From NCBI GenBank assembly GCA_016187465.1, contig JACPJQ010000004.1, positions 7,092 through 71,091 on the forward strand: a stretch of DNA of 64,000 nt, in the 5' to 3' direction. Position numbers and translations under genes: made by a program. The notes beneath the pieces are model-generated. The model was not told the origin of the DNA. It searched no databases and worked only from the letters and a program-made list of their open reading frames with translations. Numbering within the stretch: the first letter of the stretch is position 1; every line of letters starts with the position of its first letter. The stretch is from Candidatus Woesearchaeota archaeon. GTDB lineage: Archaea > Nanobdellota > Nanobdellia > Woesearchaeales > GW2011-AR4. This document shows positions 1 through 17,653 of this stretch, piece after piece.

Positions 1-744
1 ATCATCACTTATTTGCGGATAGTTCTTTATGAGGTATGCTGCCAAACCCCGCATTGCCCACGAATGCTTGCAGCCGCATGTAGGCCTGCCGTCTTTGGTT
101 ACAGCCGTATTAGCCCCGCAGCAATATTCGCAGCCCATTGTTGGAATTGTTAAAATGCTGATGTACCTTTGCTTTTCCTCCGGAGACAACTGAATCTTGT
201 TCCTGCCGTATGCCGGATCGAGATTTGCTATTATATCAAGACTCTTTATAGGATCATCAAATGAAACGCCAAGCGCTTCCCCATAAAAGGGAACTCCCCT
301 TGATATGACGACAGTCATTGCATCCTGATTTGGGTCGCCTGTCAGAGCAAGGCTTGTTTTAGTTGAAGATGTCTTAAAGGTTAAGCCTGTGCTTAATCCG
401 GCTAGCGCTGATGCCTGCGAGATTTGGATTTGATTGAAGATTATCAAAAAAGCTGCAACTGCCATTAAACCATAGCTAACTTTCTCAGTGAGTGTCAATG
501 GCTTCGCATGTGCTTCGTGCTCTGCATGAATTGCATGCGGCTTGTGTTTAGTATCTTTGCTTTCTGAGACAAAAAGCCACACCAAGAGTCCAACTAATGC
601 AACAATTAGCAATACGGATAAGTAGACCAGTAAGCTGCTATTCAAAAGCCTGTAGAACTGATACTGCGTGAATAGGATGATAGCACTGACCAATACTATA
701 AGGAATATTGTTACTTTTTCCAGCAACTCCTGATCTTTTTCCAT
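1..744 (-). CDS. Membrane-anchored protein with CxYCCG...CGC Cys motif (C-terminus runs off the window start). Paralog of 9390..10379.
   Basis: Hand translation of the minus strand gives MEKDQELL... with an N-terminal TM helix and a C-terminal MGCEYCCGANTAVTKDGRPTCGCKHSWAM. This aligns with TCDYCCGSPQNPTIITRCGCAHSAAAQGM in ORF 9390..10379. It is not in the ORF track because it is truncated. Confidence 0.4.
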   Translation of the reverse strand, partial: MEKDQELLEKVTIFLIVLVSAIILFTQYQFYRLLNSSLLVYLSVLLIVALVGLLVWLFVSESKDTKHKPHAIHAEHEAHAKPLTLTEKVSYGLMAVAAFLIIFNQIQISQASALAGLSTGLTFKTSSTKTSLALTGDPNQDAMTVVISRGVPFYGEALGVSFDDPIKSLDIIANLDPAYGRNKIQLSPEEKQRYISILTIPTMGCEYCCGANTAVTKDGRPTCGCKHSWAMRGLAAYLIKNYPQISDD

Positions 745-887
745 ATTTACCATAGTATTTGCCTTTTCTATATATACTTTACTTGAGAAACGATGTTATT
801 TTTAAATCTTTTTTTATAAAATAAGGCTTAAAAAGGTTTATTATCGTTTTTAGGGTGTTATTCAGGCTTTTCATGGCTAGGATATTT

Positions 888-1838
888 TCAGGAAGCTTTA
901 TGTTTGTAGATAAAACGGGCAATAACAAAAACAAATAAAGCAAATGCAGCCATGCCAGCAAAAGTGATGTAGGGAATTTGGAGTATCCTGTCCTCAAAAA
1001 GGTATGCATAAACTGATGTCCTTAACGGGTCCAGGACGTTGATTACGTTTGTGCCGTTGAACACTATGAACAGTGCGCCTGTGCTTATCAGCAATAAGCC
1101 TGCAATTATTTTTGTTGTGTGCATAAAAAAGGTTTTTCCGAACAGTTTGATTTCAAATTCCCTGCCCCTGAGCCATGCCTTCTGAGTCAGGTTGTATTTG
1201 TCAAACAATATTGAGATTAAAAATAACGGGACAAACAATCCGAGAGAGTAAAAAAACAGCAATGCACCCGAGTAGAGATAGTTGTGGAAGGTAGATGCAA
1301 TAAGCAAAATGCCTGCAAGCACAGGGCCGAGGCACGCGCTCCATCCGAGCCCGAACAGAATGCCGAATGCGAAAATGCCGGCAATGTCATGCCCCGTCTT
1401 CCTGTCTATTTTTATGAAAGAAAAGCCTTTGCCGAGCATTGTCATAAGTCCAAAAACTATAAGAAGCGCTCCTGAAATGAATATCAAAATTTTTGTGTCT
1501 GCAAATTGGATTGAAGCCAGTGTTTCCCCTATTGCAGCCGCAAATATTCCAAGAATAACAAAGACAAACGAGAATCCCGCAAAAAAAACAAGGGTCATTT
1601 TTGTGATTTCCTTCCTTTCCTTGAATGTGTAGGCAAAGAAAGCGGGCAAAATAGCGAGCGTGCACGGCAGCAATACGCTGATTATGCCGCCCAGAAACGC
1701 CACAAAAAGGGAAAGATTTTTCAGATAAAACACAGCCTGCTGCTGGTTATAATCAGTGATTTTCTGCAGTCCAGACTGTGCAAAAGCCAACGGAATTAAT
1801 AAGAATATTGACAGCAAAAAGATGTTTATTTTTTTCAT
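888..1838 (-). CDS. CcdA/DsbD-family transmembrane thiol-disulfide electron transporter
   Basis: Polytopic membrane protein with the two TM-embedded Cys typical of CcdA (LLPCTLAILP and GWSACLGPVLAG). It has a signal peptide. Its start overlaps the downstream ORF. Confidence 0.55.
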   Translation of the reverse strand: MKKINIFLLSIFLLIPLAFAQSGLQKITDYNQQQAVFYLKNLSLFVAFLGGIISVLLPCTLAILPAFFAYTFKERKEITKMTLVFFAGFSFVFVILGIFAAAIGETLASIQFADTKILIFISGALLIVFGLMTMLGKGFSFIKIDRKTGHDIAGIFAFGILFGLGWSACLGPVLAGILLIASTFHNYLYSGALLFFYSLGLFVPLFLISILFDKYNLTQKAWLRGREFEIKLFGKTFFMHTTKIIAGLLLISTGALFIVFNGTNVINVLDPLRTSVYAYLFEDRILQIPYITFAGMAAFALFVFVIARFIYKHKAS

Positions 1839-2326
1839 TTTATTATATTCATGCTGCTACTCCTTTGGCTTTTTTTGAAAATTGCAAAACTTAGTAACCC
1901 AACGCTTAAAATTCCAAGCGACGGTCTTAATGGTTCAAAGTAAGTGAGAACACCAGTAATTCCCAATAGAAATACTAAAATCCTGTTGCATATAGGGCAG
2001 CCGAATGTGAGAAATCCAAAAACTCCGCCTGTTGCAGCCGATGCATTGCACGCCTTATCTTTGCCGCTTGCTTTTCCGTAATAAAGAAGCCCTATATACG
2101 CCCCAATAAGCAATGATGTTATTAAAAGTGATGACATCTCAAGCCATCCTACAGGAGTCATTCTTGTAAAAAACGGATTTTTTATTATGGATGCAACTGC
2201 TCCGAGTATTATGTAAAGAACAGCGGCTGTTCCTGTCGCTATTGATAATGCTATTATTGCACTTTTTCTATTGCCGCTTTTTTCCAAAGCTCTTGTTTCC
2301 TTTTTTAATTTGTTTTTTATCCGCAT
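1835..2326 (-). CDS. Small polytopic membrane protein with C-x19-CPIC motif (possible thiol-redox or metal protein)
   Basis: Four predicted TM segments. Motifs CNASAATGGVFGFLTFGCPICN. The 4-bp overlap with CcdA ORF 888..1838 suggests one operon. Confidence 0.3.
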   Translation of the reverse strand: MRIKNKLKKETRALEKSGNRKSAIIALSIATGTAAVLYIILGAVASIIKNPFFTRMTPVGWLEMSSLLITSLLIGAYIGLLYYGKASGKDKACNASAATGGVFGFLTFGCPICNRILVFLLGITGVLTYFEPLRPSLGILSVGLLSFAIFKKSQRSSSMNIIK

Positions 2327-2458: not shown

Positions 2459-2899
2459 TTATCTGCCATACCCTTTGTTTACCCATTCAACAATGCCCCC
2501 AACAACATTATAAACATTTGTATATCCTCTTTCTGCAAGTTTTTCTGCTGCAATCTGACTCATCCTTCCAGTCTTGCAGTACAACACAATTTTTGCTTCC
2601 TTACCCTGCGGCAATTTATCAAGCTGGTTTTCTATGTCATCGTAAGGAATAAAAGCATCTGTTCCATTAATGTGTTTTTGTTCCGGTATGTGGACATCAA
2701 CCAAAGCAAAATCTTTGTTTTTTAACTGCTGGTTTAGTTCATCAACAGTCATATTCTTGTAGCTTGTATTTTTGCTTAAAGAGGTAGATTTTTGAGAGTT
2801 GTCATTGGAATCTTGTGTACATCCAATAAATAGAACTAAGGCAAAGAGTAAATATATAATTCTAAGTCCCCTATTTAATGCCGATGTGTAGTTTTTCAT
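2459..2899 (-). CDS. Rhodanese-domain sulfurtransferase lipoprotein
   Basis: Lipobox-like N-terminus (LFIGCTQD). Rhodanese active-site loop LYCKTGRMS. Confidence 0.55.
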   Translation of the reverse strand: MKNYTSALNRGLRIIYLLFALVLFIGCTQDSNDNSQKSTSLSKNTSYKNMTVDELNQQLKNKDFALVDVHIPEQKHINGTDAFIPYDDIENQLDKLPQGKEAKIVLYCKTGRMSQIAAEKLAERGYTNVYNVVGGIVEWVNKGYGR

Positions 2900-2949: not shown

Positions 2950-3405
2950 ATGCTTATTTCTTTATTTAAATTTATGTTACTGCTACAAAAAATTGCCATT
3001 AACCAGAAGTTATTTATATTTGCTTGCTATTTTCTGCTTATGAAATCAAATTTTATTGCTAAAGATATAATTTATTCACTAAGCCCGTTAGAAGCTGATA
3101 TAATCAAATCCTTGTTACCAAACAAAAAATACAGGACAAGGGACATCTATGCATTAGTCAGAAACAAAGCCTCAAAGAGCAGCGTATCGGTAATTCTCGA
3201 TAGGCTGTACCAAAAAGGTCTCGTTAATAGGTCAGTTGAAACCGCCAGAGGCGGAATAAGGTTTGTATATGGTCTCGAGCAGAACAAGGAAAATTTTGAA
3301 AAGCGAGTAGTGGAAAATGTGGTGAATTCCATAATACAAAAATTTGGTTCAAAGGCAGTAGTGTATTTTAATGAGAGCTTAAAGAAGCGGGGCAAAAATG
3401 ATTGA
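2950..3405 (+). CDS. BlaI/MecI/CopY-family winged-helix repressor
   Basis: The LSPLEADIIKSLL...RTRDIYALV...SSVSVILDRLYQKGLVNRSVETARGGIRFVY pattern matches the BlaI/CopY DNA-binding domain. The true start is probably an internal Met. The stop overlaps the sensor gene. Confidence 0.5.
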   Translation: MLISLFKFMLLLQKIAINQKLFIFACYFLLMKSNFIAKDIIYSLSPLEADIIKSLLPNKKYRTRDIYALVRNKASKSSVSVILDRLYQKGLVNRSVETARGGIRFVYGLEQNKENFEKRVVENVVNSIIQKFGSKAVVYFNESLKKRGKND

Positions 3406-4168
3406 GCAGTTAGAAATGTGGAAAAATTACTTGTATCATATATTAAATCATCCTCTTCACATGGCTATCTTTGTCCCATCATTAATACTTTCAATTGCGT
3501 TTTTTATTCTGTTCAAAAAATCTGGAGATTTAAGGAAAAAGGTAAATTTTCTGGCAATGCATATAGCGCTGCTGTTCTTTCCCTTTGTGTTCTCGGCTGT
3601 TTTTTGGAGATGCATGATGCCTATGATGAACTGCATGCCTATGATGTTCATGATTTTTGTTCCAATCTCTGGAATCATAACTATAATTTTGGGTTTTGTG
3701 TTGTTGCCATATATGTATAGGTGGTCTGACAAATGCTGCTTAATTAAAAACAACTTTATCAAGAAATTCGTTGAAAAAAATTCCAAAATACTAAAAATAA
3801 AAGAGCCCGAAGTTTATTCGATAAACGATCTAGAGCCGGCAGCTTATTCCATAACAAACCTAAAACCATCGATTTTTGTGTCTGCGGGGCTTTCAGAACT
3901 GCTTACAAAGAAGGAACTCGAAGCGGTTTTGCTGCATGAATTGCATCATCACAAATGCAAAACCTACTTCTGGAAATTTTCGGGCAATGTCCTTAGGCTA
4001 TTTACGCCAGTGGCAGCTTTTACAGGATTCTCAGGCACCTTAGAAAAAGAGGAAATTGAAGCTGACAATTATGCTATATCCATGCAAAATACAAACAAAT
4101 ACATTCTTTCGGCAAAGTCAAAAATAAAAAATTTCAGGACTTCTCGGCTCCATGCAGATGCCAAATAA
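3398..4168 (+). CDS. BlaR1/M56-like membrane Zn-metalloprotease signal transducer with a Met-rich tract
   Basis: Polytopic membrane protein with HExxH (LLHELHHHKC). It carries an unusual Cys/Met-rich segment, WRCMMPMMNCMPMMFMIF. It is translationally coupled to the BlaI-like gene. Confidence 0.45.
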   Translation: MIEQLEMWKNYLYHILNHPLHMAIFVPSLILSIAFFILFKKSGDLRKKVNFLAMHIALLFFPFVFSAVFWRCMMPMMNCMPMMFMIFVPISGIITIILGFVLLPYMYRWSDKCCLIKNNFIKKFVEKNSKILKIKEPEVYSINDLEPAAYSITNLKPSIFVSAGLSELLTKKELEAVLLHELHHHKCKTYFWKFSGNVLRLFTPVAAFTGFSGTLEKEEIEADNYAISMQNTNKYILSAKSKIKNFRTSRLHADAK

Positions 4169-5102
4169 CGAGCAAAAAAATTGACAAAGCAGAAATGATC
4201 CCTAAAATGTTGCCTGATACTGACGTGAATATTCTTGTTCCCAAAGATGCCTCATTCAAGTAGCTCCAGAACGACATAGACCATGGAATGTATTTTGGCA
4301 GCTCGCTTTGAAAAAAGAAAGTTCCTTTAAAAATAACCATTAGTATCCCTATTGCAAGCAGCAAAATTCCTCCAATTATGTTGTATGTATGGGTAATTAT
4401 TTTTTTATTAAACAGCTTAAATTCTATTGATTTGCCCCTCAATAATTTTGAATTTGCCCAGTCGTATTTATCTGAGAAGAATGCCAGCAAAATCAAAGGA
4501 GATGCTATGCCTATTCCATAAAATACAAGCATCAAAGTCCCATTTAGCACAGTTGCAGAATTTGCAGCCAATAAAAGTATGCCTGTTAGAATTGGCCCAA
4601 CGCATGGAGTCCAGCCGATTCCGAAGAAAAATCCCAATGAAGCCACACTAAAAAAACTTTGGCCTTTCCTGTAATCCAATTTAAAATTAAAGATTGTGAA
4701 GCCTATATTGAAAAACATCAAAATTCCGAAAAAAATCAGCATATAGCCCGATATAACGGCAAAAGCCAGCTTGTAGCTGTTGAAGAAATTGCCCAAAAAG
4801 CCTGCTATCAGCCCAAAAAATGTGAATGCTATCAGCAGGCCAATCGAAAATGCGCTTGTCATAAGCACAGCTTTTTTTCTGTCCTTAAAAGCAAATGAAA
4901 AAAATGTCGGCAGCAAAGCAATACCGCAAGGTGAGGTCATTGAAATCAAGCCTGCAAAGAATGCAAGCAAAAATGTTATACTGGAGGCTAATTGCTGCTC
5001 TTGCTGCTTTAGTTTTTGAAGGCCTATTGGCAATTCCTGTGCGAACGCTATGCTAGCGAACAACACAACAAATATTAATACAATTAATAATTTTTTGGTC
5101 AT
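4134..5102 (-). CDS. CcdA/DsbD-family transmembrane thiol-disulfide transporter (paralog of 888..1838)
   Basis: TSPCGIALLP and GWTPCVGPILTG motifs. About 45% identical in architecture to 888..1838. Confidence 0.55.
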   Translation of the reverse strand: MTKKLLIVLIFVVLFASIAFAQELPIGLQKLKQQEQQLASSITFLLAFFAGLISMTSPCGIALLPTFFSFAFKDRKKAVLMTSAFSIGLLIAFTFFGLIAGFLGNFFNSYKLAFAVISGYMLIFFGILMFFNIGFTIFNFKLDYRKGQSFFSVASLGFFFGIGWTPCVGPILTGILLLAANSATVLNGTLMLVFYGIGIASPLILLAFFSDKYDWANSKLLRGKSIEFKLFNKKIITHTYNIIGGILLLAIGILMVIFKGTFFFQSELPKYIPWSMSFWSYLNEASLGTRIFTSVSGNILGIISALSIFLLVIWHLHGAEKS

Positions 5103-5587
5103 TTTTTCTTACCCATAAATTTTGCTGACAAGATTCCAATTAGAAATCCAATAATCAAAAATACAAAATATTCCATGTAATTTGGCTTATTATCCTCAAT
5201 TACTTCTATTACAAAATCTTCCGGAGAGTACGTTTTGTTTCCCAAGGCAAAATTGATAAAAATTTCATGTATTCCTGCATTCTTAAACTCGTGCTTCAAA
5301 TCTAAAACTCCATAATCGATTTTGAAATTTTTTGCCAATATTTGTTCTTCGCCTTTCATTATTCTAAGCTCGCCGCTGATTTCCTTGCTGATTAATCCAG
5401 CTTTATCGGCAAAGGAAAATAAAATAGATACCCTCTCATAGACTTTCGGCACATGAGGCGCATGCGACATTTGGACAAAAATATCATCTGCCAATTTCAT
5501 GCAGCCGCCGTTGGAATAGGTTATTGGAATTAATGAAATAAAAATAACAAATACCATGCAAATAATAAGATTTCTGCTCATTTTCAA
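5099..5587 (-). CDS. Hypothetical secreted protein with C-terminal TM anchor and basic tail
   Basis: N-terminal signal or TM segment. C-terminal hydrophobic segment followed by GKKK. It overlaps neighbours on both sides. Confidence 0.3.
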   Translation of the reverse strand: MKMSRNLIICMVFVIFISLIPITYSNGGCMKLADDIFVQMSHAPHVPKVYERVSILFSFADKAGLISKEISGELRIMKGEEQILAKNFKIDYGVLDLKHEFKNAGIHEIFINFALGNKTYSPEDFVIEVIEDNKPNYMEYFVFLIIGFLIGILSAKFMGKKK

Positions 5588-5594
5588 TCATTTA

Positions 5595-6119
5595 TTATAT
5601 TACGTACTTATACTTTTGCAAGCCAAAAAATGCCCTTATTCTCTTAAATAAACCACGGCAATCATCAATAACCATGCTATCATGTTTGTCCAAGAAGTTG
5701 TAAATATGCTTGTCAATTAACGCTCTTATGAAATAATAGATTGGCTTCATGCCCCAAAAGCTCATATGAACCATAGCATATCTCCACCCGTCTATGTTGA
5801 TAAGGACATCGCCATAGTTAATCCTTATCTTTTTCCCATCTTTCTTAATAATAACTTCTTTAACATTGTCCATTAAAGCTCTCAAAGAAATAATGCCCAT
5901 TGTATGCTCCATGTCCATATGCATATGTGCTTCTATTAGCCATTCTATTTTTTTGCCATTTTTTGTAACATGCTCCATCTTTTTCTTTGGTTCTTTTTCG
6001 TAGCCTTTTTCCTTTATCCAGTTATCAACTTCTGCATAGAAGTCCTCAACTACAAAAGGACCATTATAGGTTGTTCTCAAGTCATAAAGTACCTGTTTTC
6101 TCTCCATCATTTTTATCAC
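5595..6119 (-). CDS. Hypothetical cytoplasmic protein
   Basis: ORF of 174 aa with no TM segments. Its start overlaps the upstream HxH gene, so it is in the same operon. Confidence 0.3.
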   Translation of the reverse strand: MIKMMERKQVLYDLRTTYNGPFVVEDFYAEVDNWIKEKGYEKEPKKKMEHVTKNGKKIEWLIEAHMHMDMEHTMGIISLRALMDNVKEVIIKKDGKKIRINYGDVLINIDGWRYAMVHMSFWGMKPIYYFIRALIDKHIYNFLDKHDSMVIDDCRGLFKRIRAFFGLQKYKYVI

Positions 6120-6622
6120 TTATATTCAATCACAATTTCATCCTTATCATGCATAATATATTTATTAAATTCAAAATTTTCTTTACCGTTTACTGTAATT
6201 TTTAAAGTTCCATTTTCTCCATTGCAATATTCAAAAATGCAAGAGCTGTTGAAATTCCTTCCCCAGACTTTAAAGAAATAACCTAATGTCAAAGTTTCAG
6301 GCTTTTGCCATGGTCTGTTGTTCTCCAAATGTATAGTGCCATCGCTTTCATGCGTATGGGTAGGAGACATTCTCATACCGCTTATTTGATTATCTATATT
6401 GTTGCCTATGCTTATTCCGATATTTGGAGGTATAAACTGCTCTTCGCCTTTGATCATTATTTTAAGTTTAGGATGCCAGTGGACAGGCTGCTGAGGCACT
6501 CCGTTTGTATTATTGCTTTGAGACGGGCTTTTAAATAAAAGAATGAATCCTATAAATACAGCTATTATTACAATAACTGCAATATAAATTGGCTTTATTT
6601 TCATTTTAATGCAATTCCGCAA
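6116..6622 (-). CDS. HxH-motif membrane-anchored extracytoplasmic protein (HWH subtype)
   Basis: N-terminal TM segment. HWHPKL...THTHESDGTIHLE...CIFEYC...VNGKE. Paralog of 16913..17653 and more distantly of 6606..7322 and 11286..11927. Confidence 0.4.
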   Translation of the reverse strand: MRNCIKMKIKPIYIAVIVIIAVFIGFILLFKSPSQSNNTNGVPQQPVHWHPKLKIMIKGEEQFIPPNIGISIGNNIDNQISGMRMSPTHTHESDGTIHLENNRPWQKPETLTLGYFFKVWGRNFNSSCIFEYCNGENGTLKITVNGKENFEFNKYIMHDKDEIVIEYK

Positions 6623-7322
6623 AGCCTGTTATTGAATTAAACTGATTTTTTATTTCATCTTCGCTTTCATCGCCATAGCTTATCAAAATTTTGTCCAAAT
6701 CATTGAATACATAATTTTCAAATTCATTGCTTTCTTTTCCATTGACAAAGAATTTTAGCTTTTTATTGCTATTATTGCAGAATTCTTTGTTTTCCAGAGT
6801 TATGCAATTCTTGTTGAACTCCATGCCTATGCTTTTGAAGAAAACCCACAAAGGAACTCCGGTTGCGTGTATGTGCAATGCGCCGCCAGCATCGTCTTTG
6901 TTCTGCTGATTGTCAATGTGGACAAAGCTGCTTTTCATGTAAAATCTGCTATCTGCAAAATTAAGCGGCTTTTCATTTACATAAACTTTAAAGTCAGCAT
7001 GAATGTGCTGCGAATCGAGAATGCCTATTTTTGAATCTGGATTCATGTTGCACTCTAATTGCCCGGAGTCAAGACACATCTCTACAGGCATTCCACAGGA
7101 ATCGCATCTGCCGTCATTATTCCTGTCCATCATGCCTCTTCCAACCTCTCTGTCAAAAGCCGTCAAAGTCATTCCTGAAACTCTTTTCATTTGAGAAGAT
7201 GATTGTTCAACTTGCCCTGTTTTTGAGCTTAGAAAATCAAATAGGGAAAATATGAGCAGTCCGATAACTATAAAGAATATAAATATTAATGTCAATGCCC
7301 CAAAATCTGCCTTTAATTTCAT
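6606..7322 (-). CDS. HxH-motif membrane-anchored extracytoplasmic protein (HIH subtype) with N-terminal YHS-like CxxCGM segment
   Basis: HIHADFKVYVNEKP...HIHATGVP...KNCITLENKEFCN...FFVNGKE. About 55% identical to ORF 11286..11927. Extra RCDSCGMPVEMC motif. Confidence 0.4.
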   Translation of the reverse strand: MKLKADFGALTLIFIFFIVIGLLIFSLFDFLSSKTGQVEQSSSQMKRVSGMTLTAFDREVGRGMMDRNNDGRCDSCGMPVEMCLDSGQLECNMNPDSKIGILDSQHIHADFKVYVNEKPLNFADSRFYMKSSFVHIDNQQNKDDAGGALHIHATGVPLWVFFKSIGMEFNKNCITLENKEFCNNSNKKLKFFVNGKESNEFENYVFNDLDKILISYGDESEDEIKNQFNSITGFAELH

Positions 7323-7735
7323 TTCTTCTCAATCTTGTCATAAATATGCCATCCAATGCTGAATATTGCCAAAATTCCTCCAACAATCCAGGAAAGATAA
7401 TTGAAATTTTGAACTTGCTGAAACGGCACACCAGCAATTATCAAGCCTGAATTAAATAAAATTAGTTTGCCTGACAAATGCATTCTTTTTTTATATTTTA
7501 AAATTATTGTGATTGTTAATAATGAGACTGCGACAGTCCAAAATGGAATTGCAACTTTTGTCAAAAACAGCAACGGCATTCCTGCTACTGCAAAACCTAG
7601 AAAGGTAAGGAAAGCAACTAAGGCTAAGCATGCATTATGGCAAACTTGATAGCTACCAAGAAAGCTTAAACCACCAGAAATACTTCCAGCTACACCCACA
7701 AATTTCTCTTTTATTTTGTTTACTACTTTTACCAT
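7319..7735 (-). CDS. Small integral membrane protein (about 4 TM segments, CHNAC motif)
   Basis: Hydrophobicity pattern. Start and stop overlap the adjacent genes. Confidence 0.3.
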   Translation of the reverse strand: MVKVVNKIKEKFVGVAGSISGGLSFLGSYQVCHNACLALVAFLTFLGFAVAGMPLLFLTKVAIPFWTVAVSLLTITIILKYKKRMHLSGKLILFNSGLIIAGVPFQQVQNFNYLSWIVGGILAIFSIGWHIYDKIEKK

Positions 7736-9389: not shown

Positions 9390-10379
9390 CTAAGCTTGCA
9401 TTTCTTGAACTATCCTTTTAATTGTTGGGCCTGGATACCATAAGGAATACCATCTGCCCATTTCTCCATAAATCTCTTCATCTGTAAACTTATCAGCGTA
9501 ATTCTTTATGAACCATCTTGCCATTCCTTGAGCAGCTGCAGAATGCGCGCACCCGCATCTCGTTATTATTGTCGGATTTTGCGGAGAGCCGCAGCAGTAA
9601 TCGCATGTGAATGAATTTACTATCTTGCTCCATCTTTGTTCTTGCTCAGGGTCCAATTCCAGCTTCCTGTAAGTTGCCCACCTCTTCTGCGCAGCTATCG
9701 GGTCATCAAAAGTGACGCCTGCTTCCTGCCCATACCAAGGAGTTCCTGTCGGGATAATATTATTCAGCAAATCTCTAGCCGCATCTCCAGTTGACGGCTT
9801 AAGTGATAATTCGCTAATTGTTGGCATTGGCTTAACCTTTGTTTTGTAGCCAGATATTACAGGCTGTTCGCCGGATGCAAGTGGCATTGGCTTAAGGGTG
9901 ATTTTCGAGCCAACTTCAAACTGCCCCAGTTTTAAAGTTCCGCCGCTGCCTGATCCAAAGAATTTTAATGGTGCAGAAGATACAGAACTTACAAAACTGC
10001 CAGTTGATGGATTACCGCTTGCCAAGCCATTCACTTGGAAAATCTGGAACTGGTTGAATAAGATTAATAAAGCTGCCAAACCTACTAAGCCATAACTAAA
10101 TTTTTCAATGAATGTCAATGGTTTTCTTTCTGATTTTGCAATGTGCTCGACAACATGTTCTTTTTTATCTTTATCATGAACTTGTTCATCTTTGCCAATA
10201 ATCCACCATGCAAGCAAGAATACCAGAGCTAATAACAACAATAATGATAGCATGTTCAGAAGCATGCTTGAAGAGTATTTAATCAAGAAGAGCTGCTTGT
10301 AAAGAAGTCCAATCCCTACAATAGAAATTAAGACTAACATTACCTTCTCCATAAATGGGTCATTTCTCTCTTCTGTCAT
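9390..10379 (-). CDS. Membrane-anchored protein with CxYCCG...CGC motif (paralog of 1..744)
   Basis: Two N-terminal TM helices. C-terminal FTCDYCCGSPQNPTIITRCGCAHS. Confidence 0.4.
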   Translation of the reverse strand: MTEERNDPFMEKVMLVLISIVGIGLLYKQLFLIKYSSSMLLNMLSLLLLLALVFLLAWWIIGKDEQVHDKDKKEHVVEHIAKSERKPLTFIEKFSYGLVGLAALLILFNQFQIFQVNGLASGNPSTGSFVSSVSSAPLKFFGSGSGGTLKLGQFEVGSKITLKPMPLASGEQPVISGYKTKVKPMPTISELSLKPSTGDAARDLLNNIIPTGTPWYGQEAGVTFDDPIAAQKRWATYRKLELDPEQEQRWSKIVNSFTCDYCCGSPQNPTIITRCGCAHSAAAQGMARWFIKNYADKFTDEEIYGEMGRWYSLWYPGPTIKRIVQEMQA

Positions 10380-10708: not shown

Positions 10709-11302
10709 CTATTCATTAACCAATTTGCCAAGCAGCACTTTCCATTGTTCTTCATCAAATGCGCCGATTGTGCGGTATATTATTGTTCCATTACTGCCAA
10801 TTGCATATTTGGTAGTTGTTTTTGTAATGCCATAGTCAATAAGTATTTTTTCCTGACCTTGTGCAAATATAGTTTTTTGCAGCTCTGGGTATTCTTTCTT
10901 GTATTCCTTAAGCTTAAGAAAATCCTCGCTTAAGTCCAGGCTTATTGATATAAATGTTATGTTATCTTCATACTCCCTGTACATTTTTGATAATGCAGCA
11001 TAGTCCTTTGCGCACCATGGGCACCATGTTGCCATGAAATACACAATAACTGGCCTTTTCCGCTCAATGATGTCGTATAATCTTACAGGCTTTCCCTCTG
11101 TAGTTATCACAACAAAATCCGAAGGGGCTTGGCCAACTCTGGTGCCGATAACTTGCACTTGATTTGTGTTTTGATAAACTGTTGTTGACTTTTCTTCGAG
11201 TTTGTCTTTGCTTGAAAATACATAGATGGCAATAGCAGAGAGCATTATAATCACTAATATTACAAAAAAATCAGATTTCCATTTCTTAATGGTTTTTTGC
11301 AT
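10709..11302 (-). CDS. TlpA/ResA-like membrane-anchored thioredoxin (WCPWC)
   Basis: N-terminal TM segment. Thioredoxin fold with the WCPWC active site. Confidence 0.65.
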   Translation of the reverse strand: MQKTIKKWKSDFFVILVIIMLSAIAIYVFSSKDKLEEKSTTVYQNTNQVQVIGTRVGQAPSDFVVITTEGKPVRLYDIIERKRPVIVYFMATWCPWCAKDYAALSKMYREYEDNITFISISLDLSEDFLKLKEYKKEYPELQKTIFAQGQEKILIDYGITKTTTKYAIGSNGTIIYRTIGAFDEEQWKVLLGKLVNE

Positions 11303-11927
11303 AATCTGTCACTGAATTTATCTGTTTTAGAAGTTCTTCTTCTGTTTCATCGCCGTAACTTATCAGTATTTTGTCCATATCTCTGAAGACATAAACTCCG
11401 ATATCAGAATATTCCTTCCCATTTACAAAAAATCTAAATTTTTTATTGGCGCTATTGCAAAATTTTTGCTGATTTTCCAGGGTAATGCATTCTTTGCCCA
11501 AATCAGCCCCAACACTTTTTAAAAAATACCAGAATGGAACGCCTGTTGCGTGCATGTGTATAAGCCCTGAAGCGTCTTCCTTGTTTTGCTGGTCGTCCAG
11601 ATGGATGACACTGCTTTTCATATAGTGTTTATCATCGGCAAAATTTATGGGATTTCCATTAATAAAAATCTTAAAATCGGCGTGGATGTGCTGCGAGCCT
11701 AAAGCCCCCATATTTGCACTTTTAACCCTTTCGTCTTTAGCTAGCTCGTCATCCATAAAATTAAATTGCATTGAAGACCGCACATTTTTTTGAGATGAAA
11801 CTGCATTTATCTTATCGGCAGTGAAGCTGAAAAAATCTTTCAAAGCCAAGACTAACATTCCAAAAACAGCAATCAATAAGATTGCCAGTGCTATTCTTTC
11901 TGTTTTGCTTTCCATGTTTGATGCCAT
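11286..11927 (-). CDS. HxH-motif membrane-anchored protein (HIH subtype)
   Basis: HIHADFKIFINGNP...HMHATGVP...KECITLENQQKFCN...FFVNGKE. Overlaps the thioredoxin gene. Confidence 0.4.
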   Translation of the reverse strand: MASNMESKTERIALAILLIAVFGMLVLALKDFFSFTADKINAVSSQKNVRSSMQFNFMDDELAKDERVKSANMGALGSQHIHADFKIFINGNPINFADDKHYMKSSVIHLDDQQNKEDASGLIHMHATGVPFWYFLKSVGADLGKECITLENQQKFCNSANKKFRFFVNGKEYSDIGVYVFRDMDKILISYGDETEEELLKQINSVTDYAKNH

Positions 11928-11929: not shown

Positions 11930-12376
11930 TTAGTTTTTAACGATGTACTTTCCTTTCATTCCTGTATGCCCCGGGCCGCAATAGACCGTGCATACCATAT
12001 CCCACTCCCCAGCTTCTTCTGCGTTTATCTCCAACATTGTTTTGTCTCCTTTTTTGACTGCATTTTCAGTATCCCAGCCGGGGATTATTATGCCTTCTAA
12101 TTCAAAGCCGTGCGGAACATCAATGCTTTCTATCACAAATCTTATTTTTTCCCCTTTCTTAACTACAATAGTATCTGGCTCCCATCTGTACTGTATTGAT
12201 TTCACTTCAATCTCCCTGACTCCATTTATAATTTTGCCGCTTAAAGGCAGGCTGTCAAATTTCTTTTTATGGTATTCAATTATTTTTTTAGCCTTTATTG
12301 CATCTTCATTTTCTTTTGGAGCGCATGCGCTTGCGAAGATTATCAATAAAACAAACATTAACATTGTTTTTTTCAT
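11930..12376 (-). CDS. CuA-type cupredoxin lipoprotein (cytochrome oxidase subunit II-like soluble domain)
   Basis: Lipobox ASACAPK. VPHGF...(about 40 aa)...CTVYCGPGHTGM, which is the H / C-x3-C-x3-H-x2-M CuA ligand set. Confidence 0.55.
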   Translation of the reverse strand: MKKTMLMFVLLIIFASACAPKENEDAIKAKKIIEYHKKKFDSLPLSGKIINGVREIEVKSIQYRWEPDTIVVKKGEKIRFVIESIDVPHGFELEGIIIPGWDTENAVKKGDKTMLEINAEEAGEWDMVCTVYCGPGHTGMKGKYIVKN

Positions 12377-13224
12377 TTTGAGTTGTAAATTTCCTTGATT
12401 AACTCTGTTTCAATAACATCAATATCTTGGCCGATGTGGTAGTTTTTTGGAACGTCGCCTGGCAGTGTGCCTGTGAATGAAATGCTTCCGTCTTTTGCGC
12501 TTACCCCCGCAAAAAAAGGATAAAACTGCCCCTGCAGTTTATTGACCCATACCGGCTCATTGACATTTACGACCAAGTAAGGCTCAAATCCATTGACAGA
12601 AGGCGCATTAAAGCTGAGCTCTGCCACCAATCCTGCAACGTTTTTTGTTATTGCAGGAGTTGTGCCGATAGAATCTTTCGGGTAATCAAAAATTGACAGG
12701 CGCCATGCTATCACGCTGCCGTTGACTGCATCGACCTGAACCATAAAATCCTCACCCACAGCAAGAATTCCATTTACATACCGAAACCATTTGTAGAAAT
12801 AAGTGCCGTCAACCTCTGAAACTTCAGGGTCCAGTCTCAACTCAGGTTTTGCATTCCCGGGCAGTTTTTCGAAAATTTTTTTTGCAATCTCCAGCCCCCT
12901 TTCCTCAGTTAAGGTTTTAGTGCCCGCGCTGTGCCTTAAATTTTCATTTCTCATGCCATAAATCTCATAAGCAAGAGGATTAACTTCGACATAATTTCTC
13001 TGCTCCGGCTCAAAAAGAACTATTATCAATCCCTTGTCAAGGTCAAATGATATAGGCTCATTATCTGTGCTAAGAAAATTTTTGGCGGCGTTTACCGTGT
13101 TTTCTTTCAGCTCCTTGTCAAAATCAAGGCTTATGTTAAACAGGTAAATTGAATGCGCTCCCACTATAATAACAGAGGATAATACTATTAAAATAAAAAT
13201 CAAGAACTGTTTAATATGCGTCAT
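12373..13224 (-). CDS. Hypothetical secreted protein
   Basis: N-terminal TM or signal segment. Overlaps the cupredoxin start. Confidence 0.3.
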   Translation of the reverse strand: MTHIKQFLIFILIVLSSVIIVGAHSIYLFNISLDFDKELKENTVNAAKNFLSTDNEPISFDLDKGLIIVLFEPEQRNYVEVNPLAYEIYGMRNENLRHSAGTKTLTEERGLEIAKKIFEKLPGNAKPELRLDPEVSEVDGTYFYKWFRYVNGILAVGEDFMVQVDAVNGSVIAWRLSIFDYPKDSIGTTPAITKNVAGLVAELSFNAPSVNGFEPYLVVNVNEPVWVNKLQGQFYPFFAGVSAKDGSISFTGTLPGDVPKNYHIGQDIDVIETELIKEIYNSK

Positions 13225-13269: not shown

Positions 13270-13716
13270 TCACTTGACGATGAGGTTTCCTTTCATTCCG
13301 CTATGCCCTGAGCCGCAGAACACTGAGCAGTAAGCTGTGAAAGTGCCTTCTTTGTCTGCTGTAAACTCTATTGTAACGGGCTTGCCTACTTCGAGCCTTT
13401 CATTTATGCCATACTCCTTGATTGCTATGCCGTGCGGCACATCCATGCTTGTCACTATGAGCCTTACTTTGTCGCCTTTGTTGACTTCGATGGTTGATGG
13501 TGTAAATGAAAACTGCTTTGCCGTAATTTTGAATTCTTTGACATTGATTCCAGACACTTCTGTATCTTTAGTTGCTGGCTCCTCTATAATCGGCTGTTTT
13601 TGCCCCGGAACTTCACTTCCCCCGCCAACGAGGTTTTCCGGCGCTTGAGTATTTTGATTGGCACAGGCACTGACCAAAAACACGCCCAGCACTAAAAACA
13701 ATATTATTTTTTTCAT
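13270..13716 (-). CDS. CuA-type cupredoxin lipoprotein (paralog)
   Basis: Lipobox VSACANQ. VPHGI...AYCSVFCGSGHSGM. Confidence 0.55.
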   Translation of the reverse strand: MKKIILFLVLGVFLVSACANQNTQAPENLVGGGSEVPGQKQPIIEEPATKDTEVSGINVKEFKITAKQFSFTPSTIEVNKGDKVRLIVTSMDVPHGIAIKEYGINERLEVGKPVTIEFTADKEGTFTAYCSVFCGSGHSGMKGNLIVK

Positions 13717-13849: not shown

Positions 13850-14671
13850 TTACAACGAAACCGAAACAACCCATCTCAAGAAATACCCTACATAATAAGC
13901 CAAAACTGCAGCTACTCCCCCGATGAACAATGTCTCGAGAATTGTTTTCCACCAAGCTTTTTTTGTTACGTATCTTTTTATTAATCCAATGACTGTAAGG
14001 GCAATAGCTGTCATGACAATGGCTATTACAAAAGTATGCTTATTGAATATTGGGAAGAAATAAGAGAACACATAGGCAAGCAGCGGGATGATGCCTATAG
14101 CCAAAAAGCCAAAGTAAGTTACAGCAGCGGTCTTCCACGGAGTTTTACTGCTTTCCAGCAGCCCAAGCTCGTCTGACATCATTGTGTCAATCCATACTTT
14201 CTTATTTGAGGTTATAACCTTTACCGCCAGCTCAAGGTCTTTGCCTTTGAAGCCTTTTTTCTTCATTATCTCCCTTACCTCGTGGATTTCGCCTTCGGGA
14301 ATATTTTCAATCTCCCATTCTTCCCTTTGCCTTTCTTTTTTTATGAAATCCCTTTGGGTTTTCTCGCTTAGATAGTTGCCGCATGCCATTGAAAATCCAT
14401 CAGCCAGCAGGTTTGCAAACCCCAGAATAATAACAATTCCCGAGGACAATGCTGCCCCTGTTGCCCCGGCAACAACAGCAAAAGTGGTTACTGTGCCGTC
14501 TATGGCCCCATACACAAATTCCCCCAAATACTCTCCTTTCATAAGAATTGGCTCTTCTTCGTGAATTTGGCGGTGTATCAATGAGCTTTTATGGGCTTTT
14601 CTAGCCATCTCTATGTCTTTTGTGGCAAATGCACGCTGAGCTTTTGCAATTCTGGTGTTCTTCTTTGTCAT
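13850..14671 (-). CDS. VIT1/CCC1-family Fe/Mn transporter
   Basis: GAIDGTVTTFAVVAGATGA motif plus C-terminal TM segments. Confidence 0.55.
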   Translation of the reverse strand: MTKKNTRIAKAQRAFATKDIEMARKAHKSSLIHRQIHEEEPILMKGEYLGEFVYGAIDGTVTTFAVVAGATGAALSSGIVIILGFANLLADGFSMACGNYLSEKTQRDFIKKERQREEWEIENIPEGEIHEVREIMKKKGFKGKDLELAVKVITSNKKVWIDTMMSDELGLLESSKTPWKTAAVTYFGFLAIGIIPLLAYVFSYFFPIFNKHTFVIAIVMTAIALTVIGLIKRYVTKKAWWKTILETLFIGGVAAVLAYYVGYFLRWVVSVSL

Positions 14672-15644: not shown

Positions 15645-15891
15645 TCATTATAAATAACTATCGTGTGCCAGAAATCGTTAGAAAAAAGTATGGTTCTAAC
15701 ACTTTAGGCTAAACAAATGTAAGTTTTATTCCGCTTCGCTCCATAAAATTTGTGGGATTTTCATTTCATTACAACCCCACTCGCATAATACTCGGAAAGC
15801 AAACTTTTCGCAAAATTACAGATTTTCTTTAAGGAAATATCTTATCGCAGTTTCTGTCTTGTAGCAATAAATCCTGCCATTTTTAACCTTT

Positions 15892-16203
15892 TTATGATAT
15901 ATCCCTGTGAGTTTCGTATAGGAATGCAGCATCCCCATTGTGCTTCTTTAATTCTTGGGTTAGGAGTCTGAAAATATCAGCAGACGACACCATTTTCTTT
16001 TTGATTATTATCTTTGTCACTGATGCAGAAACTTTGTCGCATATTTTTTCCGATTCCTTCTCGCTCAAATGCGCATTCCTGCACGCGAAATAGCAGGAGC
16101 CGTAAACTTTCCTTTGATCATAGAGCTCTGTGTGCCCTTTTCTCTTTACTATCTGCAGCATTGTCCTGCCTTTAGACCTTTTGATAATCTTTTTCTTTTT
16201 CAT
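15892..16203 (-). CDS. ATP-cone domain protein
   Basis: LQIVKRKGHTELYDQRKVYGSCYFA resembles an ATP-cone domain. Confidence 0.45.
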   Translation of the reverse strand: MKKKKIIKRSKGRTMLQIVKRKGHTELYDQRKVYGSCYFACRNAHLSEKESEKICDKVSASVTKIIIKKKMVSSADIFRLLTQELKKHNGDAAFLYETHRDIS

Positions 16204-16911
16204 TTAATTAAGTGTTATAGTTCCGTTTGCAATCAAAATCAGCAGCCAGCCAAGGAGTATTAAGATTATGCCGGTTGCAAGCCTCATGTAAGTTCTGTTG
16301 CCTTGCTTCCATCTCTTTAAGTTTTGTATCTTAACGCCAAAATAAACCATCAGCAAAATAACCACCAATGGCAAGACAAAGATAACATTGTAAAGGATAA
16401 GCCACAAAAATGCAGTAAAATTAAAATTTTGCGACAAAAACACAAGGATTGCCAAATACGGTCCGCCTGTGCATGGCAGTTCAACACCCGCAACAAAAGC
16501 CCCCAGGAAAATCATTGCAGGTAAGGTAATTTTCTTCGTCATTTCATGTATCTGCTTTGCCCTTTCAGGAGGAATCGACAAAGTGATGCCCTGCCCGTAC
16601 CAGAAAAAATCCTTTATTTCAATCAAGCCTGCTATTACGATTAAAGAGCCTACAACTATTGATATGTACTCGCTCACGACAATCGGGATTACACTTAAAA
16701 AATACAGAATACCCAGCCCTGCCAACAGGTATGTCAGGAACACAAAAAATATGTATATAAGCCCGTAGAATAGCATCTCTTTTTTCGAGCGGAATGCTAT
16801 CATAACCGAAACCAGAAGTATAAGCACCCCTATAGCGCAAGGGTTAATTGAATCTATCAATGCTGTTGTTACAACTGTTCCTAAAGTCGGAAGATATGCT
16901 TGAACTGTCAT
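16204..16911 (-). CDS. CcdA-like / DsbD_2 family membrane protein
   Basis: INPCAIGVL in TM1 and LPCTGGPY in a later TM segment. Confidence 0.5.
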   Translation of the reverse strand: MTVQAYLPTLGTVVTTALIDSINPCAIGVLILLVSVMIAFRSKKEMLFYGLIYIFFVFLTYLLAGLGILYFLSVIPIVVSEYISIVVGSLIVIAGLIEIKDFFWYGQGITLSIPPERAKQIHEMTKKITLPAMIFLGAFVAGVELPCTGGPYLAILVFLSQNFNFTAFLWLILYNVIFVLPLVVILLMVYFGVKIQNLKRWKQGNRTYMRLATGIILILLGWLLILIANGTITLN

Positions 16912-16912
16912 T

Positions 16913-17653
16913 TTATCCTATATTGGGGTTTATTTCCTCTGTTGGCTTTTCCGTGAATACAATTTTTATCATGTCCCCGGGAGGCACTTTTTCATAAGGA
17001 GAGATCACATAATCACGAGGATTTTCAATCAGGTTTCCGTTGACAAAAACATAAAGTTTTGCAGGTCTTTCATTGCACTTGTCCCCCTCATGAAATGAGG
17101 CTAATCCATTATCGGTTGGGACGATTATTCCATCACTGGAAAGAGAGCCGCCTATAGCATAGAAGAAAGCCCCCAAGCTGGCTGCTTTCCTGTCCAATAA
17201 AACTCCCTCTACATGAATTCTATTGTCATTATGGGCGTGCATTAAATCTGTCCCTTGCTTGTTTGAAAAGCCCTTTGGCTCTATCAGTTTAATTTCTTTG
17301 CCGCAAACCAGAAGTTCGTAGTCAGCATGCCAATGCACAGGACCTTTTGTAATTGAGATTATGTTTAAGTGCAATGTTGTCAGGATAAGATAGAGAGTTG
17401 TAAGCCCGATTGAAACCGCGATTAGTATATAAGCTGTCTTTTTTGCCGTTTCATTCATTTTTTTATTAAATAATAGAATTGTCACAATTAAAATGCCAAA
17501 AACCAAAGTGCCATAGCTGACTGCCTGCAGTTGGCTTATTGGATAAAGCTCAGAATGGTCAAGCATATACGCTTCTTCCTCTCCGTGGGCAATAACAATA
17601 AAAACAGATAAAACTAATATTAAAAATAAAAATACCAAAAACCTCTTTTTCAT
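16913..17653 (-). CDS. HxH-motif membrane-anchored protein (HWH subtype)
   Basis: HWHADYELLVCGKE...LMHAHNDNRIHVEGV...FVNGNLIE. Directly upstream of the CcdA-like gene. Confidence 0.4.
   Translation of the reverse strand: MKKRFLVFLFLILVLSVFIVIAHGEEEAYMLDHSELYPISQLQAVSYGTLVFGILIVTILLFNKKMNETAKKTAYILIAVSIGLTTLYLILTTLHLNIISITKGPVHWHADYELLVCGKEIKLIEPKGFSNKQGTDLMHAHNDNRIHVEGVLLDRKAASLGAFFYAIGGSLSSDGIIVPTDNGLASFHEGDKCNERPAKLYVFVNGNLIENPRDYVISPYEKVPPGDMIKIVFTEKPTEEINPNIG

Follow-up and report, generated by a model that had tools for sequence, protein, structure and literature searches.

Positions 1-17653 of a 64-kb stretch of DNA from a Candidatus Woesearchaeota genome (hereafter the window, meaning the stretch at its full length) hold a conserved chromosomal gene cluster, and four of its genes encode paralogs of a real, large, and unannotated protein family, termed here HxH. 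Members of this family are very probably coupled in function to extracytoplasmic thiol-redox proteins, and their shared domain is likely that of a metalloprotein. As for the cluster as a whole, the reading that we tentatively favor, even though it falls a little short of probable, is that it handles copper and matures cuproproteins outside the cytoplasm, with reductant supplied via CcdA. Gene content was established from a listing of open reading frames (ORFs) together with Pfam and NCBIfam scans. Nearly all products of the ~17.6-kb cluster are secreted or membrane proteins: with the exception of hyp174, the ATP-cone protein, and BlaI, every one carries signal, lipobox, or transmembrane (TM) features in a simple hydropathy and lipobox analysis, which also predicts nearly all of the cluster's domains to be extracytoplasmic. 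Every gene class that an earlier note had named from the letters of this DNA was recovered at or near the place it gave. This includes the four HxH paralogs (by alignment), two CuA-type cupredoxins with the full ligand set in both, a secreted protein with 19 Met residues, a VIT1 transporter (228 bits), a WCPWC thioredoxin and a rhodanese (Pfam, motif, and lipobox), a BlaI-like repressor next to a BlaR1-like HExxH membrane protease, and two CxYCCG...CGC proteins, one of which is cut by the window edge.

HxH proteins form a large unannotated family

The four HxH genes are as follows.

6116..6622, minus strand: HWH168, HxH paralog (family alignments; the NCBI start gives 162 amino acids (aa), identical at 100% to HYW20_04370)
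6606..7322, minus strand: HIH238, HxH paralog with an additional extracytoplasmic Cys4 knuckle, DGRCDSCGMPVEMC..C (family alignments)
11286..11927, minus strand: HIH213, HxH paralog (family alignments; 17-bp overlap with the TlpA-like gene)
16913..17653, minus strand: HWH246, HxH paralog with a signal peptide and two TM segments, first gene of unit A (family alignments)

The paralogs have 25-33% mutual identity, invariant His and Cys residues, and a ~130-aa domain placed after an N-terminal anchor, and all four carry the signature H-x-H...H-x-(H/E)...C-x8-10-C-N...VNG...Y-x3-D-x-D. A profile of the four matched 1,198 clusters when sequences were grouped at 90% identity and, with E ≤1e-3, 2,111 when they were grouped at 50%, 811 of the latter at E ≤1e-10. 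The HxH region has no Pfam annotation in those clusters, a Pfam scan of 42 diverse members found no family, NCBIfam was empty for the domain, and the best match in a search of PDB sequences was to unrelated pilins at E 0.1. NCBI lists the HWH168, HIH, and CxYCCG proteins, at 100% identity, as hypothetical (HYW20_04370, _04375, _04405, _04415, and _04460), and literature searches found no description of either the HxH or the CxYCCG family. The earlier note had allowed that both might prove to belong to well-characterized families, and neither has a Pfam, NCBIfam, or PDB sequence match that would place it in one.

Among 150 family representatives, the two His residues of the H-x-H motif are conserved at 96% and 97%, a mid-domain His at 62%, and a later His at 99%, while the residue two positions past the last of these is His in 73% and Glu in 26%. 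Such alternation of His with Glu is a typical trait of metal-ligand sites, and we regard HxH proteins as likely metalloproteins. The Cys pair is present at 87% and 95% in the same set. An AlphaFold2 model of HWH168 (pLDDT 84) has a beta-grasp fold. In HWH246 orthologs the pattern HWHAD...C is invariant, including a Cys eight residues after the HWH motif. The knuckle of HIH238 is conserved in the A4 consensus, and its motif is found in 11 of the 150 representatives.

Two further sequence features of the family can be recorded. Residues 66-91 of HIH238 and its orthologs read D-x-N-x-DG-x-C-D-x-CGMPVE-x-C...C, which combines an EF-hand-like loop with the Cys4 knuckle, and this knuckle resembles the start of YHS/TRASH metal-binding domains. 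In 17 of 150 members (for example P0263, P0333, and the L011 protein), a Cys-rich tail, DKACIxSxKCPERG...C, follows the HxH domain.

HxH genes are linked to thiol-redox genes by gene order and fusion

The cluster had been described as operon modules with overlapping start and stop codons, and within these modules the genes do overlap or leave gaps of ≤7 bp. The first module begins at 8261 rather than at 7740 as had been proposed, 7740-8261 being the Met-rich ORF. The module given as 12376-10709 does consist of a CuA cupredoxin, HIH213, and TlpA-like gene, but is incomplete, as a gene for a 283-aa protein (12373-13224) also belongs to it and overlaps the cupredoxin start by 4 bp.

We searched the ORFs of 29 related loci, obtained from a scan of a genome collection and derived mostly from Woese-, Pace-, and Nanoarchaeota and also from Patescibacteria and Eremiobacteria, with the proteins of the cluster. 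The co-localization proved to be conserved in related genomes, with both unit A and unit B recurring across DPANN loci. Unit A (HWH246-CcdA3-ATP-cone) is found in 14 of the 29 loci, distributed over Woese-, Pace-, and Nanoarchaeota, with the ATP-cone gene kept after CcdA3 in 12, and its order holds even where the HWH246 ortholog has diverged to E ~1e-45 to 1e-55. Unit B, (cupredoxin)-NTF2-like-mem138-HIH238-(hyp174)-HWH168-hyp162-CcdA2, is present in seven loci, a CxYCCG-sm65 pair in eight, and the BlaI-BlaR pair in three (L007, L019, and L022), while the complete cluster order recurs in L038 and L039. The earlier note had proposed a repeating pattern of an HxH gene, a CcdA or TlpA gene, and a cupredoxin or Met-rich gene. 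The linkage stands, whereas the three-part pattern is looser than described, since the best-conserved unit A has neither a cupredoxin nor a Met-rich gene.

A pooled set of 39 loci contained 58 HxH ORFs, which form 31 clusters at 60% identity, and neighbors of these non-redundant genes were sought within 2.5 kb using phmmer. A CcdA-family or thioredoxin-fold gene lies within this distance of, or is fused to, 21 of the 31; a CcdA gene is near 19 and a second HxH gene near 11. The neighbors of further diverse HxH homologs were looked up with precomputed Pfam annotation. In L030 the order is HxH-Redoxin-Rhodanese, and a multicopper oxidase gene is located at a distance of 4.4 kb; in L032, L034, and L035 the HxH gene adjoins YHS/HMA P-type Cu-ATPases, with rhodanese, DsbA-like, and thioredoxin-like genes nearby; and in L036 it is close to a cupredoxin and a PCYCGC protein.

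Both the 150 family representatives and the proteins of the loci were examined for domain fusions. The HxH domain shares a polypeptide with TlpA-like domains (P0354, containing WCPTC, and P0267), with DsbA-like domains (L011, containing FQCPAC, P0304, and P0322), and with a Cup2-like cupredoxin (P0360, E 4e-18). It also lies C-terminal to a YncE/lactonase beta-propeller in a protein from Nitrosopumilaceae (P0336, HEV2193853.1; an ammonia-oxidizing archaeon). These fusions indicate that HxH is functionally tied to thioredoxin-fold redox proteins and cupredoxins. In three other proteins (P0305, P0318, and P0378), a mem138-like membrane domain is fused to an HxH domain of the HIH type, from which it follows that mem138 and HIH238 act together. 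The coupling of HxH proteins to thiol-redox membrane genes that the earlier note had suggested is thus conserved outside of this genome, both in the two units (14 and seven loci) and in 21 of the 31 non-redundant genes, with the fusions as independent support.

The same data bear on a more general reading, in which the cluster would maintain or repair thiols and disulfides of the envelope in a generic way, as Scs, DsbD, or ResA do, and would have no specificity for copper. The HxH, CxYCCG, and mem proteins would then be clients or adaptors whose disulfides are formed, isomerized, or reduced, the His site would bind a structural or other metal (Zn, Ni, or Fe), and the cupredoxins and Met-rich protein would be co-clients. 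The conserved HxH Cys pair is in keeping with such a role, as are the fusion of HxH to reducing (TlpA) and oxidizing (DsbA) thioredoxin folds alike, the presence of a cupredoxin near only six of the 31 HxH genes, and the conserved membership of VIT1, an Fe/Mn transporter, in the cluster. However, a mere disulfide client needs no near-invariant His, and independent copper signals accompany HxH in unrelated loci, namely Cu-ATPases, a multicopper oxidase, cupredoxins, and the HxH-cupredoxin fusion. Overall, we consider this explanation unlikely.

Candidate components for thiol-disulfide exchange

The redox components and two small membrane proteins with Cys motifs are encoded as follows.

888..1838, minus strand: CcdA1, CcdA/DsbD-core thiol-disulfide electron transporter (PF02683 DsbD_TM, 61.4 bits)
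1835..2326, minus strand: mem163, 163-aa membrane protein with a C...GCPIC motif (4-bp overlap with CcdA1)
2459..2899, minus strand: rhodanese, secreted lipoprotein (PF00581, 53 bits; lipobox FIGC; catalytic Cys108)
4134..5102, minus strand: CcdA2, CcdA/DsbD-core transporter, final gene of unit B (DsbD_TM 47.7 bits, DsbD_2 39.3 bits)
7319..7735, minus strand: mem138, membrane protein with VCHNAC in TM1 (4-bp overlap with HIH238; conserved upstream of HIH238)
10709..11302, minus strand: membrane-anchored TlpA/ResA-like thioredoxin with WCPWC (AhpC-TSA 56 bits, Redoxin 39 bits)
15892..16203, minus strand: stand-alone cytoplasmic ATP-cone protein, third gene of unit A (PF03477, 36.7 bits)
16204..16911, minus strand: CcdA3, divergent CcdA/DsbD-core homolog of SfLAP type (PF11139, 37.8 bits against a cut-off of 35)

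Two of the three CcdA/DsbD-like transporters that the earlier note had counted are bona fide by DsbD_TM, as both CcdA1 and CcdA2 exceed its Pfam gathering cut-off of 27.1 bits. CcdA1 matches the DsbD core in NCBIfam at E 9e-10, has the rhodanese/DsbD fusion TsoB as its best NCBIfam match, and carries Cys59 and Cys169 within Pro-Cys/Ala-Cys TM motifs. In CcdA2, the candidate catalytic residues are Cys59 and Cys167, and its position after hyp162 is kept in seven loci. The third transporter, CcdA3, matches SfLAP and shows its CcdA-core homology only in profile-profile comparison: it has no DsbD_TM match in Pfam and no NCBIfam match, BLAST against CcdA2 was negative, and comparison with PDB sequences gave nothing usable. 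When its orthologs were aligned to the CcdA1/2 group with hhalign, the match extended over 202 columns at 96.6% probability (E 6e-10), and the catalytic Pro-Cys motifs of CcdA1/2 fell in register with NPC and LPC of CcdA3. Because both motifs align in this manner, we take CcdA3, on the strength of its sequence, to be a true CcdA-core homolog. Its C25 (NPC) and C147 (LPC) are invariant in 15 orthologs. All three transporters thus have the two Cys residues expected of the family, the first in TM1 and the second in TM4.

It could also be argued that the HWH246-CcdA3-ATP-cone triad transports a metal ion and does not shuttle thiols, with CcdA3 moving the ion, HWH246 as the extracellular metal-binding partner and the ATP-cone protein gating transport by nucleotide status. 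CcdA3 belongs to the LysE/DsbD superfamily, which includes metal exporters, and its match to PF11139 in place of DsbD_TM or any NCBIfam family would fit such a function, as would the fact that the unit A triad never occurs with a thioredoxin-fold gene and that VIT1 is directly next to it in related loci. Moreover, we know of no ATP-cone or other nucleotide-sensing partner for any CcdA or DsbD system. Nevertheless, the alignment places both Pro-Cys motifs in register, the invariance of both Cys residues is a signature of thiol-disulfide exchange and not of ion transport, and the invariant Cys eight residues past HWH in HWH246 could be the exchange partner. We therefore judge a transporter to be quite improbable.

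The thioredoxin has its WCPWC motif at residues 93-97 and its TM segment at residues 12-30, and it matches NCBIfam ResA at E 2e-15. Its scores are below the cut-offs of the named equivalogs (ResA, 57 against 170 bits; DsbE, 45.5 against 123; TlpA, 22 against 230), and from its sequence we assign it as a TlpA/ResA/CcmG relative at the family level only. A rhodanese gene adjoins HxH genes in L011, L030, and L034, which raises the prospect of a system for sulfane sulfur or persulfide handling or for thiosulfate detoxification. The secreted rhodanese would be its key enzyme, with its active-site Cys regenerated by CcdA/TlpA, and the HxH proteins would be sulfur or metal-sulfide partners. A rhodanese gene indeed directly follows HxH-Redoxin in L030/L031 and the DsbA-HxH fusion in L011 and is near HxH in L034, DsrE and OsmC genes are upstream of HxH in L039, and the TsoB match of CcdA1 points in the same direction. 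On the other hand, a rhodanese was found near only one of the 31 non-redundant HxH genes (39 loci, 2.5 kb), by a phmmer screen that is insensitive, and the rhodanese gene in the window is 3.2 kb from the nearest HxH gene, beyond the regulator pair. The cupredoxins, the Met-rich protein, and the Cu-ATPase neighbors would also be left unexplained. We hold out hardly any likelihood for this explanation.

The mem163 gene adjoins a TlpA-like gene in L004 and L006. Its product had no match in Pfam, NCBIfam, or the PDB, mem138 had none in Pfam or NCBIfam, and relatedness between the two was undetectable. Both are small polytopic proteins with intramembrane Cys motifs (GCPIC and VCHNAC) and no assigned family, and could serve as further thiol or metal relays.

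Candidate components linked to copper and other metals

The following genes encode the cupredoxins, their operon partner, and further candidate metal-related proteins.

7740..8261, minus strand: Met-rich secreted or anchored protein with 19 Met, MMGAGMMNGGMMNMMMGG (composition and TM segments)
8464..8982, minus strand: NTF2/SnoaL-like lipoprotein (MecA_N 24.8 bits, above the cut-off; SnoaL below the cut-off; lipobox LSAC)
11930..12376, minus strand: Cup1, lipoprotein cupredoxin with a CuA ligand set, CTVYCGPGHTGM (Cupredoxin_1 35.7 bits; lipobox)
12373..13224, minus strand: p283, anchored Cys-free protein of 283 aa, encoded at the head of the Cup1 operon (4-bp overlap with Cup1)
13270..13716, minus strand: Cup2, lipoprotein cupredoxin with a CuA ligand set, CSVFCGSGHSGM (Cupredoxin_1 44.5 bits, COX2 35.5 bits)
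13850..14671, minus strand: VIT1-family Fe/Mn transporter (PF01988, 228 bits)

By motif check, both Cup1 and Cup2 contain C-x3-C-x3-H-x2-M plus an upstream His, which is the full CuA ligand set. The upstream residue is His89 in Cup1 and His95 in Cup2, where it precedes the first Cys by 35 residues, a spacing that we take to be like that of COX2. For both proteins, the best NCBIfam match is the CuA domain of NosZ and CoxB (lactonase-type NosZ), with Cup2 matching the NosZ CuA domain at E 1e-19. Neither is itself a NosZ, as their scores of 65-70 bits compare to cut-offs of 625-700 and only the C-terminal CuA domain aligns with these 148-aa proteins. The p283 protein, which has a weak DUF4901 match only in Pfam and nothing usable among PDB sequences, is kept as a pair with Cup1 in L019. 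Orthologs of the Met-rich protein are found in L003, L010, and L022, the NTF2/SnoaL-like gene has a conserved position between the cupredoxin and mem138 genes, and related loci keep VIT1 flanked by the ATP-cone and cupredoxin genes.

Since CuA centers are the electron-entry sites of terminal reductases, we also considered whether the cluster might encode a thiol-fed extracellular oxidoreductase in which a multi-His HxH site is catalytic and a CuA cupredoxin is the electron-entry module, similar to a split NosZ or COX2. Reducing equivalents exported by CcdA/TlpA would go to an external acceptor (O2, N2O, or a metal), which would provide an electron sink without a respiratory chain. The HxH-cupredoxin fusion P0360, the HxH domain on a YncE/lactonase-type beta-propeller in Nitrosopumilaceae, and the closeness of both cupredoxins to the CuA domain of lactonase-type NosZ are all consistent with this, and DPANN CuA proteins do occur without a respiratory chain (PMC10936187). 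Conversely, thiol-to-CuA transfer has no known precedent as an energy or redox-balancing route, most HxH genes are without a nearby cupredoxin, and the HxH site, with no more than 4-5 conserved ligands, looks mononuclear. We regard such an enzyme as very improbable. If it did exist, it would constitute a new route for electron disposal or for O2, N2O, or metal detoxification in DPANN archaea and candidate phyla radiation (CPR) bacteria lacking a respiratory chain, one fed by thiols and not by a quinone/cytochrome chain, and it would explain the enigmatic DPANN 'nosZ-like' genes.

A tentative route for copper handling and cuproprotein maturation

In the copper-maturation reading, the three CcdA-core proteins would pass electrons across the membrane from thiols in the cytoplasm. 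On the outer side they would reduce the TlpA/ResA-like thioredoxin and, probably, a set of Cys-rich proteins as well (CxYCCG, mem138, mem163, and those with the HIH knuckle). The reduced partners would in turn keep the Cys pairs of both CuA cupredoxins, and of the carriers themselves, reduced for copper binding. The HxH ectodomains, with their predicted beta-grasp fold and putative His3-(His/Glu) site, may bind copper at the membrane surface and hand it to the cupredoxins or buffer it, which would make them the equivalent of Sco, PCuAC, or CtaK in bacteria, while the Met-rich protein could supply or buffer Cu(I). Regulation of the cluster probably falls to the BlaI/BlaR1-like pair, in which the protease carries an extracytoplasmic Cys that is conserved.

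We infer metal binding, copper as the metal, the direction in which electrons and metal flow, and regulation. The argument for copper is one of context and draws on the ligand sets of the CuA type, on the Met-rich protein, and on the Cu-ATPase and multicopper oxidase neighbors at other loci. The proposal that HxH proteins are copper carriers or buffers is made because no homolog of Sco, PCuAC, or CtaK is encoded and HxH proteins are the sole conserved candidate metal binders. Among 27 cluster proteins, the known copper chaperones Sco, PCuAC, CtaK/YtkA, CopC, and YcnI had no Pfam or NCBIfam match at E <0.01. A carrier role is further suggested by the location of the HIH213 gene between the CuA cupredoxin and TlpA-like genes, which it overlaps or abuts. 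To our knowledge, quinones, cytochromes, and classical DsbB/VKOR or Sco/PCuAC machinery are usually missing from DPANN archaea and CPR bacteria, the genomes of which are tiny. DPANN CuA proteins that are extracellular and have no respiratory chain would require a dedicated maturation route.

Several observations weigh against this proposal. A cupredoxin gene lies near only six of the 31 non-redundant HxH genes, and some HxH genes have unrelated neighbors, such as in L012, where the gene is beside hut genes, and in L021. Unit A lacks both a cupredoxin and a thioredoxin gene and includes an unexplained cytoplasmic ATP-cone partner. The predicted His3-(His/Glu) site would suit Cu(II) but equally Zn, Ni, or Fe, and is atypical of Cu(I) chaperones. 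The fusions to DsbA-type domains, which are oxidizing, are at odds with a purely reductive pathway, and the related loci were fetched with patterns from this very window, hence are biased toward its relatives.

The cluster provides the first conserved genetic context for DPANN CuA proteins, and it defines two large unannotated families (HxH and CxYCCG) that gene order and fusions tie to extracytoplasmic thiol and copper chemistry. If HxH proteins were copper carriers, they would represent a third evolutionarily unrelated solution to CuA metallation after PCuAC and CtaK, as well as a useful marker of copper handling in uncultivated lineages.

Regulator pair, remaining genes, and chromosomal setting

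The remaining genes of the cluster are listed below.

1..753, minus strand: CxYCCG...CGC paralog, 3'-truncated with its C-terminus beyond the left edge (CEYCCG...CGCKH; three N-terminal TM segments)
2950..3405, plus strand: BlaI/MecI/CopY-family winged-helix repressor (PF03965 Penicillinase_R, 34 bits against 22.6)
3398..4168, plus strand: BlaR1/HtpX-like M48 membrane metalloprotease with HELHH and a Cys/Met-rich loop, CMMPMMNCMPMM (PF01435, 28 bits against 20.3)
5099..5587, minus strand: hyp162, signal/TM segment, ~110-aa ectodomain, and C-terminal TM segment (conserved order HWH168-hyp162-CcdA2)
5595..6119, minus strand: hyp174, cytoplasmic His/Met-rich protein of 174 aa without a TM segment (HMHMDMEH; cluster EAHMHMDMEHTMG)
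9158..9355, minus strand: sm65, small anchored peptide ending in ...NLPSMVGGC-COOH (downstream of CxYCCG in eight loci)
9390..10379, minus strand: CxYCCG...CGCAH protein (three TM segments and a highly conserved 180-aa ectodomain)
15094-15644, minus strand: DUF2283 and PBECR2/DUF4258 toxin-antitoxin-like pair, between the VIT1 and ATP-cone genes and unrelated to the system

The true start of the BlaI-like repressor is probably internal, giving 121 aa, which is the length called in L037. The BlaR1-like protease has 256 aa and is without a sensor domain, and its PF05569 (M56) score of 21.5 compares to a cut-off of 31. Its Cys72 and HExxH motif (HELHH) are invariant in four orthologs, and a second Cys is often kept. 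The stretch CMMPMMNCMPMM corresponds to residues 72-84 in the TM2-TM3 region; we had considered this Met-rich loop as the mark of a Cu(I) sensor and dropped the idea, as the methionines are not conserved in the orthologs, only the Cys.

The left-edge CxYCCG gene encodes 331 aa at full length, as determined from a Logan contig that stops 105 bp past the gene. The left edge of the window thus cuts the cluster, which continues beyond it. The CxYCCG ectodomain has 70-78% identity across DPANN phyla, and a profile of the family searched against PDB sequences gave nothing usable. Many homologs in other DPANN are 400-450 aa long, with an additional N-terminal CPVCQ and KTCxxC region that is missing in both window copies. 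The CxYCCG homolog of L017 (6153-7256) also ends in ...LPSMVGGC, similar to sm65, and this shared C-terminal Cys motif is perhaps a processing, attachment, or metal site. A further small ORF, sm68 (8934-9140, minus strand), has an N-terminus like that of sm65 and a CANC motif. Neither hyp162 nor hyp174 matched a Pfam or NCBIfam family, and hyp162 also gave nothing usable among PDB sequences; hyp174 is a variable component, present only in L001 and L024 among the related loci.

The cluster has the same G+C content as the rest of the window and housekeeping flanks, and is for these reasons considered chromosomal rather than foreign. Fibrillarin and Nop56 are encoded at 18.9-20.5 kb, and those flanking genes that were scanned have housekeeping functions, SecDF, CTP synthase, and GlmS among them. 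A horizontally acquired island was rejected on the same G+C match and on the synteny across DPANN lineages. The toxin-antitoxin-like pair is a strain-specific insertion, as the ATP-cone and VIT1 genes are directly adjacent in related loci (L001, L002, L008, and L038). Outside of the cluster, ORFs of 593 aa (20520-22301, minus strand) and 419 aa (39071-40330, plus strand) have no Pfam match at E ≤1e-5.

Comparison with known systems

One of the closest parallels is the assembly of CuA centers. In bacteria, TlpA reduces the CuA-site Cys residues of CoxB and those of Sco ahead of metallation, CcdA exports the reductant, and a membrane-anchored chaperone delivers the copper, a task for which different lineages use proteins unrelated to each other, PCuAC and CtaK (PMC9145763). 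The Cup1-HIH213-TlpA operon resembles the TlpA-ScoI-PcuC-CoxB system of Bradyrhizobium and the Sco/CtaK plus CcdA system of Bacillus in that a membrane-anchored CxxC thioredoxin is encoded together with a CuA cupredoxin and a putative metal carrier, likewise anchored in the membrane (PMC9145763, PMC6669012). The common logic consists of CcdA-type exporters, reduction of the CuA Cys residues, and subsequent metallation. However, the cluster has no Sco (a CxxxC thioredoxin fold), PCuAC, or CtaK, its candidate carrier being the unrelated beta-grasp HxH domain with His/Glu ligands. Its cupredoxins are free lipoproteins and not oxidase subunits, and the window has genes for neither a heme-copper oxidase nor cytochrome c machinery.

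The Scs proteins (ScsABCD) of Salmonella, Proteus, and Caulobacter combine a DsbD-family reductase with DsbA-like and TlpA-like periplasmic folds and function in copper tolerance. HxH domains likewise occur with CcdA, TlpA-like, and DsbA-like partners and next to Cu exporters. Unlike Scs, the cluster has no ScsA or ScsC homolog, its CcdA proteins lack an N-terminal domain of the DsbD-alpha type, and the HxH, CxYCCG, mem138, cupredoxin, and ATP-cone proteins have no Scs counterpart.

Cytochrome c maturation, which proceeds from CcdA/DsbD through ResA/CcmG to CcmH, differs from the cluster in that no CcmH is supported by Pfam (PF03918), the LRCxxC motif, or Foldseek, and genes for a CxxCH protein, a heme lyase, or ResBC are absent from the window. 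It is an unlikely role for the CcdA/TlpA proteins, given that no real gene in the 64 kb has a CxxCH motif and no heme-handling gene was present among ten large flanking genes scanned.

The cupredoxins themselves have a recognizable counterpart in the small DPANN 'nosZ-like' CuA proteins of oxygen-deficient zones, which are predicted to be extracellular and have no respiratory chain (Zhang et al., mBio 2024, PMC10936187). Cup1 and Cup2 are of the same kind, being small, Sec-exported proteins with a CuA motif that branch between COX2 and NosZ and occur in Woese-, Pace-, and Nanoarchaeota. In that study, their role was reported as unknown, nosZ complementation was negative, and N2O reduction was discussed, while the neighborhood of CcdA, TlpA, HxH, and CxYCCG genes was not described (PMC10936187).

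With regard to fold, the HxH domain can be compared to beta-grasp proteins of the DUF4430/transcobalamin beta-domain type (PDB 3u7z, a 'putative metal binding protein', 2bb6, and 5no0), from which it differs by an identity of 10-14% and the lack of a PF14478 match. The H-x-H and H-x-(H/E) motifs, the Cys pair, and the thiol-redox context are peculiar to HxH. In a literature search, no paper tied HxH, CxYCCG, mem138, mem163, hyp162, or their neighborhood to a function. The earlier note was aware of no described system with this composition, and this holds true for the key families, as HxH, CxYCCG, mem138, mem163, and hyp162 are undescribed, whereas the logic at the system level is already known.

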